From a phage: a stretch of 64,000 nt of DNA. A program made the position numbers and the translations under genes. This document shows, piece after piece, positions 3,609 to 39,979 of this stretch. The stretch lies in the NCBI GenBank assembly GCA_036930585.1, contig GCA_036930585.1_3066.1. One strand, given 5' to 3'. Under the pieces are notes generated by a model, which made no database searches, had not been told where the DNA came from, and saw nothing but the letters and a program-made list of their open reading frames with translations. Within the stretch, counting starts at the first letter, position 1. Each line of letters begins with the position of its first letter.

Positions 3609-4433
3609 TTAGATATTTGACCAGACTTTGTTTGCAGAGAAACGTTTTCCTTTGGAGTAGAAGCTTTGGAGTGGCATCAACACAACGTTCGCCCAGTCTT
3701 TCGGGGCGATTTCAACAAGGCTACCCATAATATTACCAGGTATATATGCCTTAATCATTTGGTCTGCACCCCTAAATCCTTTCACTTGACTCCAATCAAT
3801 TTTTAATTTCGTTTTATTAGTAATAGTAGGTGTATTTGCATATTGCTTTAAAAGCTCTTCTAGAAACTGTTGACGAGCTTTAGGTGGAATATAGTGCAAG
3901 TTCAATCCGTACATTAAATTATGCTTACCTAAACCAAGGTAAATTATCAAAGGAAATTTATCCCAGTAAGGAAGAGTTTCCTTGTGTTTAGCATCATAAG
4001 CAAAAGCATATATTCGTCCCGGCTGCGGGCGAACAACTTTATGTCCTTTTACTTGCTTAATAGTTTCAGCAAACCACTTTCTGGTTTTATTATTAATTGC
4101 TGCGCCTTCATTACGAATTTTATCGCGCAATGTTTGTCTGAATGAATTTATCATAAGCAGTTGTCTTTCTTGCTTATTGAGTTTATTCATTGGTTTTGAT
4201 TCAAGCTTTTGAATCTTTTCAGCCGTTTTAATTCCTGAAGCATATTTTGACATTGCTGAAGTAAACGTAGAGTATTTGATTCCTCTTTCTTCAGCAAATT
4301 GCTTTCCTGTCATTCCTTTTGCTTTGGCCTTTTTATATTCAAGACCTATCTGAATCCATTTCTTTTCGTTTAATGATTGCTTAACCTTTGGAACTTGGGG
4401 AGTGCTTTCATTAATTATTTGAAAAATAGCCAT
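3609..4433 (-). CDS. 2: DNA end protector protein gp2
   Basis: 274 aa, same length and position as T4 gp2. Confidence 0.8.
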
Positions 4434-4885
4434 TATGCCCCCTTAAAGCCAAGAGCTCGTAATCCATCTTCTGTCAGAATTCTAAATTTTATTCCACGCT
4501 TTTCAGCTAAAGCTTGCGCTGCTTTCCATTTGTCGGTATTAACGGAATATGTATAAATTTCATTCATAAATCTTTTCTTCGCTGCGGTTGTTAGATGTGC
4601 TGGTTTAACTGGTGGTTGTGTTTCTTTTTTAGGCTTTATTTCAATAAAAAATTCTTGCCCAGAAGAATCTTTCATCCAAATATCCATGAAGTATCTACGT
4701 TTTTTCCCTTCGGCATTACAAAAATAAGGAATTACTGCTGTTTCACTACCCCATGCAATAATTTCTGGATTTTTATCTAACCATTCAAAAAAGAATTTTT
4801 CCCAATTTGATCTATACGTAATTTTTTTAGGGTCACCTCTATACTTTGATATATTTTTAGGAACCCATTTTCCAGAATATGCCAT
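4433..4885 (-). CDS. 4: head completion protein gp4
   Basis: 150 aa, overlaps gene 2 start (ATGA), position as T4. Confidence 0.8.
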
Positions 4886-4896
4886 TGGATTCTCCT

Positions 4897-4919
4897 TATA
4901 AATAGATAATATATTTATA
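4897..4919. promoter_or_regulatory. divergent T4-type late promoters (TATAAATA) for gene 53 (+) and gene 4 (-)
   Basis: tataaata at 4897-4904 (+) and tatttata at 4912-4919 (= TATAAATA on minus). Confidence 0.55.
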
Positions 4920-4932
4920 AACAGGAGGGCCC

Positions 4933-5523
4933 ATGCTCTTTACATTTTTTGATCCGATTGAATATGCGGCCAAAACGGTGAATAAAAACGCGCCGACTAT
5001 TCCTATGACAGATATTTTTAGAAACTATAAAGACTATTTTAAACGCGCTCTTGCGGGATACCGCTTACGTACTTATTATATCAAAGGTTCACCACGCCCG
5101 GAAGAATTAGCAAATACTATATATGGAAATCCACAGTTGTATTGGGTTTTATTGATGTGTAATGATAATTATGACCCGTATTATGGATGGATTACTTCAC
5201 AAGAAGCAGCTTATCAAGCATCTATACAAAAATACAAAAATGTAGGTGGAGACCAAATAGTATATCATGTGAATGAGAACGGTGAAAAATTTTATAATTT
5301 AATATCATACGATGATAATCCATATGTTTGGTATGATAAAGGTGATAAAGCTAGAAAATATCCTCAATATGAAGGAGCACTTGCTGCTGTTAATACGTAT
5401 GAAGATGCTGTTCTTGAAAATGAAAAACTTCGTCAAATAAAAATAATAGCAAAATCAGACATTAATTCATTTATGAACGACCTTATACGTATAATGGAGA
5501 AATCTTATGGAAATGATAAGTAA
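4933..5523 (+). CDS. 53: baseplate wedge protein gp53
   Basis: 196 aa, position before gene 5. Confidence 0.8.
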   Translation: MLFTFFDPIEYAAKTVNKNAPTIPMTDIFRNYKDYFKRALAGYRLRTYYIKGSPRPEELANTIYGNPQLYWVLLMCNDNYDPYYGWITSQEAAYQASIQKYKNVGGDQIVYHVNENGEKFYNLISYDDNPYVWYDKGDKARKYPQYEGALAAVNTYEDAVLENEKLRQIKIIAKSDINSFMNDLIRIMEKSYGNDK

Positions 5524-7237
5524 TAACCTTAATTGGTTTGTTGGTGTTGTTGAAGATAGAATGGACCCATTAAAATTAGGTCGTGTTCGTGTTCGTGTGG
5601 TTGGTCTGCATCCACCTCAAAGAGCACAAGGCGATGTAATGGGTATTCCAACTGAAAAATTACCATGGATGTCAGTTATTCAACCTATAACTTCTGCAGC
5701 AATGTCTGGAATTGGAGGTTCTGTTACTGGACCGGTAGAAGGAACTAGAGTTTATGGTCATTTTTTAGACAAATGGAAAACTAACGGAATTGTCCTTGGC
5801 ACGTATGGTGGAATAGTTCGCGAAAAACCTAATAGACTTGAAGGATTTTCTGATCCGACTGGACAGTATCCTAGACGTCTAGGAAATGATACTAACGTAT
5901 TAAACCAAGGCGGAGAAGTAGGATATGATTCGTCTTCTAATATTATCCAAGATAGCAATCTAGACACTGCGATAAATCCTGATGATAGACCACTATCAGA
6001 GATTCCAACTGATGATAATCCAAATATGTCAATGGCTGAAATGCTTCGCCGTGATGAAGGATTAAGACTAAAAGTTTATTGGGATACCGAAGGATATCCG
6101 ACAATTGGTATTGGTCATCTTATCATGAAGCAGCCAGTTCGTGATATGGCTCAAATTAATAAAGTTTTATCAAAACAAGTTGGTCGTGAAATTACTGGAA
6201 ACCCAGGTTCTATTACAATGGAAGAGGCGACAGCTTTATTTGAGCGTGATTTGGCTGATATGCAACGTGACATTAAATCACATTCTAAAGTTGGCCCAGT
6301 CTGGCAAGCTGTCAACCGTTCTCGTCAAATGGCATTAGAAAATATGGCATTTCAGATGGGTGTTGGTGGTGTAGCTAAATTTAACACAATGTTAACTGCT
6401 ATGTTAGCCGGAGATTGGGAAAAGGCATATAAAGCTGGTCGTGATTCATTGTGGTATCAACAAACAAAAGGCCGTGCATCCCGTGTTACCATGATTATTC
6501 TTACGGGGAATTTGGAATCATACGGTGTTGAAGTAAAAACCCCAGCTAGGTCTCTATCAGCAATGACTGCTACTGTAGCTAAATCTTCTGACCCGGCTGA
6601 TCCTCCTATTCCAAATGACTCTAGAATTTTATTCAAAGAACCAGTTTCTTCATATAAAGGCGAATATCCTTATGTGCACACAATGGAAACTGAAAGTGGA
6701 CATATTCAGGAATTTGATGATACTCCTGGGCAAGAACGATACAGATTAGTTCATCCAACTGGAACTTATGAAGAAGTATCACCGTCAGGAAGAAGAACAA
6801 GAAAAACTGTCGATAATTTGTATGATATAACCAACGCTGATGGTAATTTTTTGGTAGCCGGTGATAAAAAGACTAACGTCGGTGGATCAGAAATTTATTA
6901 CAACATGGATAATCGTCTTCACCAAATAGATGGAAGCAATACAATATTTGTACGTGGCGATGAAACTAAGACAGTTGAAGGCAATGGAACTATCCTAGTT
7001 AAAGGTAATGTTACTATTGTAGTTGAAGGTAATGCTGACATTACAGTTAAAGGAGATGCTACCACTTTAGTTGAAGGAAATCAAACTAACACAGTAAATG
7101 GAAATCTTTCTTGGAAAGTTGCTGGGACAGTTGATTGGGACGTTGGTGGTGATTGGACAGAAAAAATGGCATCTATGAGTTCTATTTCATCTGGTCAATA
7201 CACAATTGATGGTAGCCGTGTGGATATTGGGTTATAA
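5507..7237 (+). CDS. 5: baseplate central spike / tail lysozyme gp5
   Basis: 576 aa; lysozyme domain DEGLRLKVYWDTEGYPTIGIGHL (T4-lysozyme-like E/D/T); C-terminal VxGxxxxx beta-helix repeats. Confidence 0.92.
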   Translation: MEMISNNLNWFVGVVEDRMDPLKLGRVRVRVVGLHPPQRAQGDVMGIPTEKLPWMSVIQPITSAAMSGIGGSVTGPVEGTRVYGHFLDKWKTNGIVLGTYGGIVREKPNRLEGFSDPTGQYPRRLGNDTNVLNQGGEVGYDSSSNIIQDSNLDTAINPDDRPLSEIPTDDNPNMSMAEMLRRDEGLRLKVYWDTEGYPTIGIGHLIMKQPVRDMAQINKVLSKQVGREITGNPGSITMEEATALFERDLADMQRDIKSHSKVGPVWQAVNRSRQMALENMAFQMGVGGVAKFNTMLTAMLAGDWEKAYKAGRDSLWYQQTKGRASRVTMIILTGNLESYGVEVKTPARSLSAMTATVAKSSDPADPPIPNDSRILFKEPVSSYKGEYPYVHTMETESGHIQEFDDTPGQERYRLVHPTGTYEEVSPSGRRTRKTVDNLYDITNADGNFLVAGDKKTNVGGSEIYYNMDNRLHQIDGSNTIFVRGDETKTVEGNGTILVKGNVTIVVEGNADITVKGDATTLVEGNQTNTVNGNLSWKVAGTVDWDVGGDWTEKMASMSSISSGQYTIDGSRVDIGL

Positions 7238-32789: not shown

Positions 32790-34355
32790 ATGACTATCAA
32801 AACTAAAGCTGAACTTTTGAACAAATGGAAGCCATTACTGGAAGGTGAAGGTTTACCGGAAATTGCTAATAGCAAACAAGCGATTATCGCTAAAATCTTT
32901 GAAAACCAGGAAAAAGATTTCCAGACAGCTCCAGAGTACAAAGACGAAAAAATCGCCCAGGCATTTGGTTCTTTCTTAACAGAAGCTGAAATCGGTGGTG
33001 ACCACGGTTACAATGCTACCAACATCGCTGCAGGTCAGACTTCTGGAGCAGTAACTCAGATTGGCCCAGCTGTTATGGGTATGGTACGTCGTGCTATTCC
33101 TAACCTGATTGCTTTCGATATTTGTGGTGTTCAGCCAATGAACAGCCCGACTGGCCAGGTATTCGCACTGCGCGCAGTATATGGTAAAGACCCAATCGCT
33201 TCCGGTGCTAAAGAAGCATTCCACCCAATGTATGGTCCAGATGCAATGTTCTCTGGTCAGGGTGCTGCTAAGAAATTCGCTGCTTTGAAAGCAAGTGATA
33301 CTCTTGAAGTCGGAACTATTTACACTCACTTCTTCCAGGAAACTGGTACAGTATATCTGCAAGCTACAGCAGCTAAACAAATTGATTCAGGCGCATCTGA
33401 CGCAGACAAATTAGATGCTGAAATTAAGAAACAAATGGAAGCTGGTGTACTGGTAGAAATCGCTGAAGGTATGGCTACTTCTATCGCTGAACTTCAAGAA
33501 GGTTTTAACGGTTCTACCGATAACCCATGGAATGAAATGGGCTTCCGTATCGATAAACAAGTTATCGAAGCTAAATCTCGTCAGCTGAAAGCTGCTTACT
33601 CTATTGAATTAGCACAAGACCTCCGCGCTGTTCACGGTATGGATGCTGATGCTGAACTGTCTGGTATTCTGGCTACAGAAATTATGCTGGAAATCAACCG
33701 TGAAGTTGTTGATTGGATTAACTACTCCGCTCAGGTTGGTAAATCTGGTATGACCCTGACTCCGGGTTCTAAAGCTGGTGTATTTGACTTCCAGGACCCA
33801 ATCGATATTCGTGGTGCTCGCTGGGCAGGTGAATCCTTTAAAGCTCTGTTGTTCCAGATTGACAAAGAAGCAGTTGAAATTGCTCGTCAGACTGGTCGCG
33901 GCGAAGGTAACTTCATTATCGCTTCCCGTAACGTAGTTAACGTTCTGGCTTCAGTTGATACCGGCATTTCTTATGCTGCACAAGGTCTGGCTACTGGCTT
34001 TAACACTGATACTACCAAGTCAGTATTTGCTGGTGTTCTGGGTGGTAAATACCGTGTATATATCGACCAGTATGCTAAACAGGATTATTTCACCGTAGGT
34101 TATAAAGGTCCGAACGAAATGGATGCTGGTATTTACTATGCTCCATATGTAGCTCTGACTCCGCTGCGTGGTTCTGATCCGAAGAACTTCCAACCGGTAA
34201 TGGGATTCAAAACTCGTTACGGTATCGGTATCAACCCATTTGCAGAATCCGCTGCTCAGGCTCCGGCTTCTCGCATCCAGAGCGGTATGCCTTCTATTCT
34301 GAATAGCCTTGGTAAAAACGCTTACTTTAGACGTGTATATGTTAAAGGTATCTAA
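32790..34355 (+). CDS. 23: major capsid protein gp23 precursor
   Basis: 521 aa; N-terminus MTIKTKAELLNKWKPLLEGEGLPEIANSKQAIIAKIFENQEKDFQ as T4 gp23. Confidence 0.95.
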   Translation: MTIKTKAELLNKWKPLLEGEGLPEIANSKQAIIAKIFENQEKDFQTAPEYKDEKIAQAFGSFLTEAEIGGDHGYNATNIAAGQTSGAVTQIGPAVMGMVRRAIPNLIAFDICGVQPMNSPTGQVFALRAVYGKDPIASGAKEAFHPMYGPDAMFSGQGAAKKFAALKASDTLEVGTIYTHFFQETGTVYLQATAAKQIDSGASDADKLDAEIKKQMEAGVLVEIAEGMATSIAELQEGFNGSTDNPWNEMGFRIDKQVIEAKSRQLKAAYSIELAQDLRAVHGMDADAELSGILATEIMLEINREVVDWINYSAQVGKSGMTLTPGSKAGVFDFQDPIDIRGARWAGESFKALLFQIDKEAVEIARQTGRGEGNFIIASRNVVNVLASVDTGISYAAQGLATGFNTDTTKSVFAGVLGGKYRVYIDQYAKQDYFTVGYKGPNEMDAGIYYAPYVALTPLRGSDPKNFQPVMGFKTRYGIGINPFAESAAQAPASRIQSGMPSILNSLGKNAYFRRVYVKGI

Positions 34356-34369
34356 TCTTTGACGATTTA

Positions 34370-34400
34370 AGGGACCTTCGGGTCCCTTTAGTTGTTTTTA
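34370..34400 (+). terminator. rho-independent terminator after gene 23
   Basis: hairpin gggaccttcgggtccc followed by T-rich tract. Confidence 0.6.
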
Positions 34401-34403
34401 TGG

Positions 34404-34411
34404 TATAAATA
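34404..34411 (+). promoter_or_regulatory. T4-type late promoter TATAAATA for gene 24
   Basis: tataaata about 28 nt upstream of ATG 34439. Confidence 0.55.
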
Positions 34412-34438
34412 AATCATATAAACCAAAAGGAAAGCGCA

Positions 34439-35722
34439 ATGGCTAAAATCAACGAACTTCTGCGCGAATCAACCACAACGAATAGCAACTCAATCGGTCG
34501 CCCAAATCTCGTTGCTTTGACTCGCGCTACCACTAAATTAATATATTCTGACATTGTAGCAACGCAAAGAACTAATCAACCTGTTGCTGCTTTTTATGGT
34601 ATCAAATACCTTAATCCAGATAACGAATTTACTTTTAAAACTGGTGCTACTTACGCTGGCGAAGCTGGATATGTAGACCGAGAACAAATCACAGAATTAA
34701 CAGAAGAGTCTAAATTAACTCTCAATAAGGGCGATTTATTCAAATATAATAATATCGTTTATAAAGTATTAGAAGATACACCATTTGCTGATATTGAAGA
34801 AAGCGATTTAGAATTAGCTCTTCAGATTGCAATTGTTCTTTTAAAGGTTCGTCTATTTTCTGACGCAGCGTCAACAAGCAAATTTGAAAGCTCTGATAGT
34901 GAAATTGCGGATGCTAGATTCCAGATTAATAAATGGCAAACCGCAGTTAAATCTCGTAAACTTAAAACTGGCATCACAGTTGAATTAGCACAAGATTTAG
35001 AAGCAAATGGATTCGATGCTCCTAATTTCTTGGAAGATTTGCTTGCAACTGAAATGGCGGATGAAATCAATAAAGATATTCTACAGTCTTTGATTACAGT
35101 ATCAAAACGCTATAAAGTTACAGGAATTACTGATACCGGTTTCATTGATTTGAGTTATGCATCTGCACCTGAAGCTGGTCGTTCATTATACCGAATGGTA
35201 TGTGAAATGGTTTCGCATATCCAAAAAGAATCAACTTATACAGCAACGTTCTGTGTTGCTTCAGCTCGTGCTGCTGCGATTCTTGCTGCATCAGGTTGGT
35301 TAAAACATAAACCAGAAGATGACAAATATCTTTCACAAAATGCCTACGGGTTCTTAGCTAATGGTTTACCGCTTTATTGCGATACCAACAGTCCATTAGA
35401 TTATGTAATCGTTGGCGTAGTAGAAAATATTGGTGAAAAAGAAATTGTTGGATCAATTTTCTATGCTCCGTATACAGAAGGTCTTGACTTAGATGACCCT
35501 GAACATGTAGGTGCATTTAAAGTTGTAGTTGACCCAGAAAGCTTACAACCGTCTATAGGTTTATTAGTTAGATATGCTTTATCAGCAAATCCTTATACCG
35601 TAGCAAAAGATGAAAAAGAAGCGAGAATAATTGATGGTGGAGACATGGATAAAATGGCGGGTAGTTCAGATTTGTCTGTTTTATTAGGTGTTAAGTTACC
35701 AAAAATTATTGTTGATGAATAA
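34439..35722 (+). CDS. 24: capsid vertex protein gp24
   Basis: 427 aa, same as T4. Confidence 0.92.
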   Translation: MAKINELLRESTTTNSNSIGRPNLVALTRATTKLIYSDIVATQRTNQPVAAFYGIKYLNPDNEFTFKTGATYAGEAGYVDREQITELTEESKLTLNKGDLFKYNNIVYKVLEDTPFADIEESDLELALQIAIVLLKVRLFSDAASTSKFESSDSEIADARFQINKWQTAVKSRKLKTGITVELAQDLEANGFDAPNFLEDLLATEMADEINKDILQSLITVSKRYKVTGITDTGFIDLSYASAPEAGRSLYRMVCEMVSHIQKESTYTATFCVASARAAAILAASGWLKHKPEDDKYLSQNAYGFLANGLPLYCDTNSPLDYVIVGVVENIGEKEIVGSIFYAPYTEGLDLDDPEHVGAFKVVVDPESLQPSIGLLVRYALSANPYTVAKDEKEARIIDGGDMDKMAGSSDLSVLLGVKLPKIIVDE

Positions 35723-37304: not shown

Positions 37305-37334
37305 AAATGAAGAAAGGGGCCGAAGCCCCTACGA
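37305..37334 (-). terminator. rho-independent terminator after hoc
   Basis: minus strand GGGGCTTCGGCCCC followed by TTTCTTCATTTTG. Confidence 0.55.
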
Positions 37335-37727
37335 TTATGGATAGGTATAGATGATACCAGTTTCTAAAGCAGTTTTATGAATGATGTATCCATTGCGCGA
37401 TTCTTGGACATCAACTTCTGGATAGTCTTTCATCATCTTCTGGAGAGTGTAACGATGCAAGTAGTACTTACTATCTGGATCGTCAGTTTTCCAATCTTTA
37501 CCTTCTTCAGTCATTTTTTGGATTTCATCCATAACCCACCAACCGCACCAGATATAAGCTGAAGTACGATGTGGAAGAGGATGAACATAAGGCAATTCGC
37601 CATCAACGGTCCAGACAAATGATTCGGTACCTTCAGCTGCAGCACCGGAGCCGGTCGCAGTGAAATTGGTTGTTGCTCCAATAACGGCCGTAGCCGCCAA
37701 AGGAGAAATATTTGCGGTATAAGCCAT
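37335..37727 (-). CDS. hoc: Hoc (highly immunogenic outer capsid protein), shortened form
   Basis: 130 aa; C-terminal ELPYVHPLPHR...GIIYTYP matches the Hoc capsid-binding domain; only about 40 aa of Ig-like N-terminal sequence. Confidence 0.8.
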   Translation of the reverse strand: MAYTANISPLAATAVIGATTNFTATGSGAAAEGTESFVWTVDGELPYVHPLPHRTSAYIWCGWWVMDEIQKMTEEGKDWKTDDPDSKYYLHRYTLQKMMKDYPEVDVQESRNGYIIHKTALETGIIYTYP

Positions 37728-37736
37728 AAGTTATCC

Positions 37737-38417
37737 TTATTTTAATGTTACGAAAGAAGAATTGCGTGTTTCACGAATTAGAACTGATCCGTCACGGTTA
37801 ATGTAATAAATTAAGCTAAATAAAGTTTGGTGTGCTGACGCGTGTTCAAAACTAGTTGGGTGAGATTTCCAATCCGGAGTTTCAGCAATCCATTGATAAA
37901 TCCACCAAGGAACAGTGCAGAATCCTGGATTTTTTCCAATCAGCTGAAGATTCGGACTAAAGTTTTCCGGAAGAGTAAATACAGACGGCTTTTCAGATTC
38001 AATAATCTCAGCTACAGCTTGTTCAAATTTTTCTTCAACAAAAGGAGTATCTTCAATCAAAACATCGGTATTTTCAGGAATTTTATCCGTTTCTACTACT
38101 TCAATTTTAATGTCAGATTTAACCGGAGAATCAATCAGAAGTGCTGCCTCTGGATTGACTTCTTCATCGTCATATTTTAATCCGTCTGCAGCATCAGCAG
38201 CATCAATTAAGTCTTTAATAGATAACCCATCAGTCTCTGGCATAGGTTCACTAGCGAGCTTCTGGAGAGCTTCTTCAATATCAGCAACGATATTATCAAA
38301 AGATTTATTCTTTTTGACCTTTATACCAAACTGTTCAGCATATTCAGCTAATTTAGCTTTAGCTTCTTTGTTATCATCAAGAGCCTTCAGCTCTGCAATA
38401 TAATCTTTATCTATCAT
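37737..38417 (-). CDS. inh: Inh, inhibitor of prohead protease gp21
   Basis: 226 aa, acidic; position between hoc and uvsW. Confidence 0.7.
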   Translation of the reverse strand: MIDKDYIAELKALDDNKEAKAKLAEYAEQFGIKVKKNKSFDNIVADIEEALQKLASEPMPETDGLSIKDLIDAADAADGLKYDDEEVNPEAALLIDSPVKSDIKIEVVETDKIPENTDVLIEDTPFVEEKFEQAVAEIIESEKPSVFTLPENFSPNLQLIGKNPGFCTVPWWIYQWIAETPDWKSHPTSFEHASAHQTLFSLIYYINRDGSVLIRETRNSSFVTLK

Positions 38418-38430
38418 AATATTTCCTCAG

Positions 38431-38438
38431 TATAAATA
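38431..38438 (+). promoter_or_regulatory. T4-type late promoter TATAAATA for uvsW
   Basis: tataaata about 30 nt upstream of ATG 38468. Confidence 0.5.
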
Positions 38439-38467
38439 TAGATATATTTATTACATGGTATTTAGAC

Positions 38468-39979
38468 ATGACTGACATTAAAGTACATTTTTATGATTTT
38501 AGTCACGTGAGAATTGATTGTGAAGAAAGTACATTTCATGAACTCCGTGATTTCTTTAGCTTTGAAGCTGATGGGTATCGTTTTAATCCGAAGTACAGAT
38601 ATGGCAACTGGGATGGACGAATCCGTCTTTTAGATTATAATCGTCTTCTTCCATTCGGCTTAGTCGGGCAAATTAAAAAGTTCTGTGATAACTTTGGCTA
38701 TAAAGCCTGGATTGACCCACAAATTAACGAAAAAGAAGAATTATCAAGAAAAGATTTTGATGAATGGCTTTCTAAATTAGAAATCTATTCAGGAAATAAA
38801 AGAATTGAACCACACTGGTATCAAAAAGATGCAGTGTTCGAAGGATTAGTTAATCGTCGTAGAATTCTTAATCTTCCAACATCCGCTGGTAAATCTTTAA
38901 TTCAAGCTTTGCTTGCGCGATATTATTTGGAAAATTATGAAGGTAAAATTCTTATCATTGTTCCAACAACTGCTCTGACAACTCAGATGGCTGATGACTT
39001 TGTTGACTATCGTTTATTCAGTCATGCAATGATAAAGAAAATCGGTGGTGGAGCATCAAAAGATGATAAATATAAAAATGATGCACCGGTCGTTGTTGGT
39101 ACATGGCAAACTGTAGTAAAACAACCGAAAGAATGGTTCTCACAGTTTGGAATGATGATGAATGATGAATGTCATCTTGCTACAGGAAAAAGTATTTCAT
39201 CTATCATATCAGGTTTAAATAACTGCATGTTCAAATTCGGTTTGTCTGGTTCATTACGTGATGGCAAAGCCAATATCATGCAGTATGTTGGAATGTTTGG
39301 TGAAATATTTAAGCCAGTAACGACTTCTAAGTTAATGGAAGATGGACAAGTAACTGAGCTAAAAATTAATAGTATTTTTCTTCGCTATCCCGATGAGTTC
39401 ACTACTAAATTAAAGGGAAAAACTTATCAAGAAGAAATAAAAATTATTACGGGGCTTAGTAAAAGAAATAAATGGATCGCTAAATTGGCTATTAAGCTTG
39501 CACAAAAAGATGAAAACGCTTTTGTCATGTTTAAACATGTATCGCATGGTAAAGCTATTTTCGATTTAATTAAAAATGAATACGATAAAGTTTATTACGT
39601 ATCAGGGGAAGTTGATACCGAAACACGCAATATAATGAAAACCTTAGCTGAAAATGGTAAAGGAATAATTATAGTAGCTAGTTATGGTGTATTTTCTACT
39701 GGTATTTCAGTTAAAAATCTGCATCACGTTGTTTTAGCACACGGTGTTAAATCTAAAATTATTGTATTGCAAACAATAGGTCGTGTATTACGTAAGCATG
39801 GTTCTAAAGCTGTTGCTACAGTTTGGGATCTTATAGATGACGCGGGCGTAGTTTCTAAATCAAAAACATCTTCTAAAAAATACTCGCATTTAAACTATCT
39901 TTTAAAACACGGCATTGATCGTATTCAGCGCTACGCAGATGAAAAATTTAATTACGTAATGAAAACAGTTAATTTATAA
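38468..39979 (+). CDS. uvsW: UvsW SF2 helicase
   Basis: 503 aa; Walker A TSAGKSL, DECH box MNDECH. Confidence 0.92.
   Translation: MTDIKVHFYDFSHVRIDCEESTFHELRDFFSFEADGYRFNPKYRYGNWDGRIRLLDYNRLLPFGLVGQIKKFCDNFGYKAWIDPQINEKEELSRKDFDEWLSKLEIYSGNKRIEPHWYQKDAVFEGLVNRRRILNLPTSAGKSLIQALLARYYLENYEGKILIIVPTTALTTQMADDFVDYRLFSHAMIKKIGGGASKDDKYKNDAPVVVGTWQTVVKQPKEWFSQFGMMMNDECHLATGKSISSIISGLNNCMFKFGLSGSLRDGKANIMQYVGMFGEIFKPVTTSKLMEDGQVTELKINSIFLRYPDEFTTKLKGKTYQEEIKIITGLSKRNKWIAKLAIKLAQKDENAFVMFKHVSHGKAIFDLIKNEYDKVYYVSGEVDTETRNIMKTLAENGKGIIIVASYGVFSTGISVKNLHHVVLAHGVKSKIIVLQTIGRVLRKHGSKAVATVWDLIDDAGVVSKSKTSSKKYSHLNYLLKHGIDRIQRYADEKFNYVMKTVNL

Follow-up and report, generated by a model that had tools for sequence, protein, structure and literature searches.

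An apparent in-frame deletion in the hoc gene of a T4-like phage that leaves the capsid-binding domain and a short Ig-like stub

The Ig fibre of Hoc, the main display anchor of T4, is a textbook phage structure, with a proposed role in attachment to mucus and to surfaces of animal or bacterial origin. T4 Hoc (376 aa; PDB 5vf3, 8t1x) carries three complete Ig-like domains that form a fibre of ~180 Å, followed by a capsid-binding C-domain assigned to residues 281–376 (Fokine et al. 2023, PMC10385173), in which Y293, H295, H299, R300, Y304, W306, W309, W310, D313, Q354, E355–G359 and Y360 contact gp23* or hold the binding loop, and for which gp23 residues 326–344 are the published docking site (PMC10385173). 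The number of Ig domains varies naturally, with Hoc proteins of 1 to 10 Ig domains on record (PMC10385173), and includes the two-Ig "variant Hoc" of PhiPNJ-9, which lacks domain 3; published MUC2-binding determinants lie within intact domains 1–3 (PMC11853027). Phage production is unaffected in hoc or soc nulls, and N-terminal fusions of up to 90 kDa leave the affinity and copy number of Hoc unchanged, whereas C-terminal fusions bind 500-fold more weakly (PMC3012670). The negative charge of Hoc has been linked to particle dispersion (Fokine et al., PMC10385173).

Hoc of JS98/Dhakavirus-type phages, represented here by fDHCT2 (282 aa), combines a pair of intact Ig domains with a C-domain that has diverged (86% at the amino acid level), and binds MUC2 via an Ig domain that is lacking from the protein described below. 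Hoc of Salmonella phage SG1, a Tequatrovirus, is a 470-aa mosaic of four Ig-like domains and a C-domain, with a JS98-like N-terminus, a T4-type C-domain and T4-type flanks. An analogue for the question whether an anchor still binds by itself is T5 pb10 (PMC5292684), a hexamer-centre decoration made of an anchor domain and an Ig-like display domain, although its anchor fold is unrelated to that of Hoc and its domain order is reversed.

The window analysed here, a 64,000-nt stretch of phage DNA (GCA_036930585.1, contig GCA_036930585.1_3066.1), has the gene order uvsW-inh-hoc-24.3-24.2-rnlB-24-23, the same as in SG1, BYEP01, P8, MZ726795 and ON528739, and its hoc ORF occupies the syntenic site between inh and 24.3, as in Tevenvirinae genomes. 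Over the 24 kb around the gene, many E. coli Tequatrovirus genomes (e.g. U115, fFiEco06) match the window at ~97.8% identity, and the background is therefore that of an ordinary T4-like phage. The ORF is an intact single frame from a canonical ATG to a canonical TAA, free of frameshifts and premature stops and with its start and RBS in place, and is thus distinct from a pseudogene; its predicted product includes the stretch ...FVWTVDGELPYVHPLPHR. The original prediction, of a Hoc reduced to 130 aa with the capsid-binding domain kept and most of the Ig-like sequence gone, held for the ORF and its quoted translation, which matched T4 Hoc (5vf3_Z, 376 aa) at E=1.2e-64 (phmmer against PDB). A second hoc is absent from the 64-kb window, all other tblastn matches having E>1. 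Coordinates of the features are collected in Table 1.

Table 1. Positions of hoc, its parts and its signals, and of the Hoc docking segment of gp23, in the 64,000-nt window
Feature	Coordinates	Strand	Remarks
Truncated hoc ORF	37335..37727	-	130 codons + TAA; predicted 14.7 kDa, pI 4.9, net charge about -7
Codons 1-43 of hoc, first half of Ig-like domain 1	37599..37727	-	JS98/Dhakavirus-type
Codons 44-130 of hoc + stop, complete T4-type C-domain	37335..37598	-	261/264 nt identical to P8 hoc
GATGGCG, putative deletion junction at hoc nt 124-130, in the context ...GTTGATGGCG followed by AATTGCC...	37598..37604	-	
hoc Shine-Dalgarno AAGGA, overlaps inh stop codon	37734..37738	-	identical to T4-type hoc RBS (AAGGATAACTTATG)
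inh, 226 aa, upstream neighbour of hoc	37737..38417	-	
Terminator-like hairpin AGGGGCTTCGGCCCCT, then T-rich tail, 4 nt past hoc stop	37305..37330	-	
gp23 codons 326-344, Hoc docking segment	33765..33821	+	identical to T4 gp23

A motif scan of the window for the T4 late-promoter motif TATAAATA gave 25 occurrences in total, against 9.7 expected from shuffles, and none stands immediately before hoc or inh on the - strand. Since the motif is absent between inh and hoc, the two genes are probably co-transcribed. In the neighbourhood of the locus, the gap between gene 23 and gene 24 (34355–34439, 83 nt) and that between inh and uvsW (38417–38468, 50 nt) leave no room for an ORF. In T4 these two positions are occupied by the homing-endonuclease genes segD and segE. 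In the T4 clone T4_7t1, a GIY-YIG nuclease gene adjoins inh.

The C-terminal two thirds of the protein were assigned by alignment, with residues 44–130 corresponding to T4 Hoc 290–376 and S301T as the sole change (87/88 identical from G289; phmmer), a substitution also present in SG1 and P8. All of the published contact or loop residues are present (16/16), including the E355-S-R-N-G359 loop (ESRNG), the invariant columns of the C-domain are kept, and the only part of the 281–376 domain that is missing is the T4 linker, residues 281–288. An AlphaFold2 (AF2) model of the 130-aa protein, built on 27 homologues, had pLDDT values of 86–91 over residues 61–130 and placed four strands and three helices there, matching the published C-domain. 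In a PDB fold search with this model the only significant match was 8t1x_X, the T4 Hoc C-domain (E=9e-12, TM 0.75 on target). Retention of the capsid-binding domain, as predicted earlier, is supported by the sole substitution, the complete set of contact residues and the fold match together.

The partner surface on the capsid is also preserved. Window gp23 (32790..34355) matches T4 gp23 without change across about residues 307–408, docking segment included. Elsewhere, its substitutions relative to T4 are clustered at about residues 136–205, plus one at about 405, the protein being otherwise identical. Judged from the unchanged docking segment and the intact contact residues, the protein would bind as monomers, each in the middle of an expanded gp23* hexamer. 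It shares its locus, C-domain and gp23 docking site with T4 Hoc.

The N-terminal part was predicted to retain "about 40 aa" of Ig-like sequence, which proved to be 43 aa, with no complete Ig domain. Residues 1–43 aligned to Hoc 1–43 (22.5 bits, phmmer). T4 Hoc offers three complete Ig-like domains where the window protein has 43 residues of one, and these come from a JS98-type allele. A Pfam scan of the 130-aa protein returned no family even at E≤1; no Pfam model covers the C-domain, and the stub is of insufficient length. In the AF2 model the stub has pLDDT values of 54–76 and two short strands, and the PDB fold search with the 130-aa model gave no match to an Ig fold. Forty-three residues are too few for an Ig fold. 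Window Hoc thus has neither a complete N-terminal Ig-like domain of the kind that forms a surface fibre nor the folded, exposed, glycan-binding Ig-like domain that characterizes BAM-type adhesins. The stub has a GRAVY of +0.46 and, as half an Ig domain, exposes core residues; it is joined straight to the C-domain, the native linker (T4 residues 281–289) being absent.

The origin of the stub differs from that of the rest of the gene. At the protein level it is 95% identical to Hoc of the JS98/Dhakavirus-type phage fDHCT2, and at the DNA level 125/129 nt are identical to fDHCT2 hoc, compared with 103/129 (80%) for SG1 and 73/129 (57%) for T4-type P8. The RBS is T4-type, as is the last part of inh; homology to T4-type hoc breaks off at about nt 11 of the gene and is picked up again at nt 124–130. 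Since the hoc RBS is identical to the T4-type one, the switch from T4-type to JS98-type sequence lies at about hoc nt 9–11, and since T4-type homology resumes at nt 124–130, all that stands for the Ig array is a 120-nt JS98-type patch in a T4-type hoc. On the sequence comparison, then, the gene is a mosaic remnant and not a T4 hoc from which a segment has simply been deleted.

A parent was sought among 50,697 phage records, of which SG1 was the sole one to match the whole 1.8-kb query from inh to 24.2. The alignment of the window to SG1 hoc fell into two collinear blocks, the window lacking exactly 1020 nt (340 codons), and the sequence on either side of the gap is collinear and 95–98% identical. 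An in-frame internal deletion is supported by these alignments, and this part of the original prediction stood, subject to one correction: it had overlooked that the stub is JS98-type. SG1 hoc is the best available model, as far as sequence goes, of an undeleted parent, differing from the window in its 340 additional codons, in the N-terminal 129 nt and in the position of the type switch, which in SG1 is upstream of the RBS and in the window after the ATG. More distant blastn and tblastn searches with the N-terminal part returned Dhakavirus-like phages and SG1 only, with no match above 97% nucleotide identity that had T4-type flanks, and a search of IMG/VR for a parent combining a T4-type RBS with a JS98-type start gave 0 matches.

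In JS98-type hoc the junction heptamer GATGGCG is found at nt 124–130, within domain 1, and again directly before the start of the C-domain (GAATTACC), forming a 7-nt direct repeat, and in fDHCT2 it brackets the segment that is missing in the window. With SG1 as model parent, GGYG (4 nt) is shared at the junction, versus 7 nt with fDHCT2, and both deletion size and microhomology length therefore depend on the relative chosen as model. An assembly collapse of Ig repeats was considered as a separate candidate for the origin of the junction and rejected, as the endpoints are not at paralogous repeat positions and share ≤7 nt; the 4–7 nt shared with candidate parents are too little for an assembler, and the proviso that the junction might be a collapsed Ig repeat accordingly finds no support in the sequence.

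Loss of the sequence between two short direct repeats is a classical mode of mutation in T4. The parent would have been a mosaic hoc whose Ig array was JS98-type and whose C-domain was T4-type, and slippage or illegitimate recombination at the short direct repeat GATGGCG would be the most likely mechanism, removing the array in frame from codon 43 of domain 1 to the linker before the C-domain. The events may have taken place in two steps, with a mosaic parent arising first and the deletion following, or as one illegitimate exchange in a mixed infection. There is precedent for such junctions: that of the 164-aa hoc allele of phages WFK and WFL6982, an independent event, lies inside the 7-nt repeat CCAGAAG, and that of a 133-aa metagenomic allele lies at a 4–7-nt overlap.

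The allele was then placed against available collections. Of 735 phage records that matched the gene, 0 covered at least 80% of it; the exact junction, queried as a degenerate WTVDGELPYVHP pattern, gave 0 matches in IMG/VR and was found in 0 JGI metagenomes and 0 GTDB species genomes; and megablast of the locus against complete E. coli genomes gave no match. The exact protein occurred once in a large protein collection, under EMK4141246.1; it is annotated as "hypothetical protein V8280_003987 [Escherichia coli]" and encoded on a contig of 166,205 bp, and the collection names Logan as a source as well. The window therefore derives from phage DNA that was assembled along with a bacterial isolate. 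For hoc length, Tequatrovirus records sampled at even intervals were surveyed, 37 of them natural, giving inferred lengths of about 370–386 aa in 21 records and about 470–478 aa in 16; the sole shorter hoc in the sample belonged to a laboratory T4 mutant. A 283-aa form also exists, e.g. in BYEP01. The allele is a singleton, private to this phage, and presumably recent.

We consider it probable, at about 0.7, that this is a real, recent and private allele of a dispensable gene, in which the Ig array was lost in frame and whose 14.7-kDa product still docks on the capsid as an anchor that displays no fibre. With a normal RBS and terminator kept, the product should be made late, together with inh, and with the C-domain complete and the gp23 docking site unchanged, the best reading is that the 14.7-kDa protein occupies the hexamer centres. 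Each gp23* hexamer centre of an expanded capsid would be expected to hold one copy, with an acidic, unfolded stub of 43 residues exposed in place of a fibre of ~180 Å. As no fibre would be displayed, the allele should be null for Ig-mediated adherence to mucin and cell surfaces, with growth in culture unaffected. Net charge per Hoc molecule is -7 in the window, versus -17 for T4-type Hoc, and Hoc-borne negative charge per capsid would fall by about 60%. What the sequence comparisons establish is the intact ORF, its domain content, the junction, the mosaic origin and the rarity of the allele; from these we infer expression, capsid docking, the adherence phenotype and the order of recombination.

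The same deletion could instead be real but amount to an effective null, its product being unstable, degraded or unable to dock, and the virions lacking Hoc as do those of T2 or of hoc-deletion T4; the open frame would then reflect no more than the one-in-three chance of a deletion falling in frame. We regard this, the main rival reading, as unlikely, although several observations lend it weight. The gene is dispensable and both natural and laboratory nulls exist: in T2 (NC_054931.1, extracted locus 974–2087), whose hoc is a natural pseudogene, the sequence is spread over three frames and annotated as two "Hoc-like head decoration" fragments, and in the T4 mutant clone T4_7t1 (OL964745.1) the Hoc C-domain is gone. 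What is left of the Ig domain in the window is a half that cannot fold, with lower AF2 confidence (pLDDT 54–76) and no Pfam domain; the missing native linker might hinder docking, and the exposed half domain could cause misfolding, proteolysis or aggregation, which would make the allele a plain null. As a singleton, the allele has also given selection no time to act, and in the one pair of Ig-less alleles in which substitutions could be counted (P0027 and P0028, the 97- and 106-aa forms described below), 6 differences were nonsynonymous and 0 synonymous. Against this reading, the whole C-domain is kept without mutation, including 16/16 contact residues; binding by Hoc is unimpaired by N-terminal extensions of up to 90 kDa (PMC3012670); and natural Hoc-like proteins of PG7 and Muldoon set unrelated modules beside the C-domain (PMC10385173). 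T2, the T4 hoc-deletion display strains and T4_7t1 resemble the window phage in being viable without the fibre, but their C-domain is destroyed or removed, whereas that of the window is intact.

A protein search with the C-domain as query revealed independent in-frame alleles at the same locus that are Ig-less or Ig-reduced, of 164, 133, 182, 97/106 and 95 aa, and at least six independent alleles, including that of 130 aa in the window, combine the native start and an in-frame C-domain with loss of Ig sequence. Since the C-domain was the query, only in-frame survivors bearing it could be found, and the set is biased by ascertainment. These alleles share with the window the locus, the start, the C-domain and, as far as the model parents show, short-repeat junctions, but differ from it in endpoints and in parental alleles, indicating independent events. 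A description of the short in-frame alleles (164, 133, 182 and 95–106 aa) was not found in the literature.

The 164-aa hoc of WFK (MK373775.1, extracted locus 301–795) and WFL6982, both finished phage genomes, is annotated just as "hypothetical protein"; compared with the full-length relative MRostami-2023e, it has an in-frame deletion of 636 nt and keeps 73 residues of Ig domain 1 together with the C-domain. The 133-aa hoc comes from a metagenomic T4-like phage (ENA ERZ19219169 NODE_3882, 716–1117; Logan DRR256985, 713–1114), has a T4-type N-terminus and joins ...VDNVP to EPEGELPY, three codons from the junction in the window; its DNA is identical in the two assemblies, one a SPAdes contig and the other a Logan contig. 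The 182-aa hoc was found in Shigella sonnei assemblies. Hoc of 97 or 106 aa was present in three samples (extracted loci 4001–4321, 92–412 and 543–836), its N-terminus (MATPNNSMVEKDK) being what remains of a Hoc with one Ig domain, of Big_2 type. The substitution counts for P0027 and P0028 give no sign, at the sequence level, of purifying selection on the bare C-domain, the differences being too few to conclude from.

Recurrence of this kind could also mean that loss of the Ig array with an in-frame C-domain is selected, rather than a product of random decay. Possible gains would be escape from anti-Hoc antibodies, avoidance of sticking to non-host surfaces and persistence with a bacterial culture; the C-domain might serve a purpose by itself at the hexamer centre, or shedding the immunogenic and adhesive fibre might pay while an empty site is disfavoured. 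The pattern that suggests it is the set of at least six independent alleles of 95–182 aa with native start and in-frame C-domain, among them the 97/106-aa form in three samples and two T4-type alleles from bacterial isolate assemblies. We nevertheless hold selection to be quite improbable, because the set was ascertained through its C-domain, alleles that are out of frame or have lost the C-domain exist too, a hoc shorter than about 370 aa occurred in 0/37 natural Tequatrovirus records of the spread sample, the one testable pair (P0027/P0028) lacks a signal of purifying selection, and the window allele is a singleton.

That the true hoc is full-length and the short gene an artefact, produced by collapse of Ig repeats or by chimeric joining of reads from a Tequatrovirus and a Dhakavirus present together, is very improbable indeed: two phage types do meet in the gene, at boundaries that match the ends of the 120-nt patch, and it is a singleton out of a bacterial isolate assembly, but the junction joins the middle of domain 1 to the linker rather than two Ig repeats, the sequence shared at either patch boundary is ≤7–11 nt and far under assembler k-mer sizes, frame, RBS and terminator are all preserved, Logan is also listed for this protein (a possible second assembly), and comparable short alleles are reproduced, the 133-aa one in SPAdes and Logan contigs and that of WFK/WFL6982 in finished genomes.

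Read as an anchor that docks without displaying a fibre, the window protein is a new architectural variant of a known dispensable protein, rare and unsurprising, and changes no view of T4 biology. A natural anchor-only Hoc would be a ready control for work on adherence, dispersion and immunogenicity, and hints that some 87 residues might do as a minimal capsid-anchor tag. Taken with the other short alleles, it indicates that the Ig array has been lost repeatedly at short repeats; were such losses selected, the C-domain alone would be useful at the hexamer centre, or loss of the fibre would pay in some niches.

Two further observations were made on the short alleles. P0001 (E. coli) and P0006 (Shigella sonnei) carry a truncated T4-type hoc on virulent-phage contigs in bacterial isolate assemblies, which suggests phage carriage in, or contamination of, the cultures. 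In the SRR6426150 Logan contig, from an Aeromonas-phage-like T4 relative, the 95-aa hoc (4001–4288) consists of the capsid-binding domain alone and is followed at 4297–6170 by two opposite-strand genes that are absent from T4 at this place, one encoding 268 aa without a Pfam match and the other 352 aa with a weak collagen-repeat match; this pair may be a replacement surface module.
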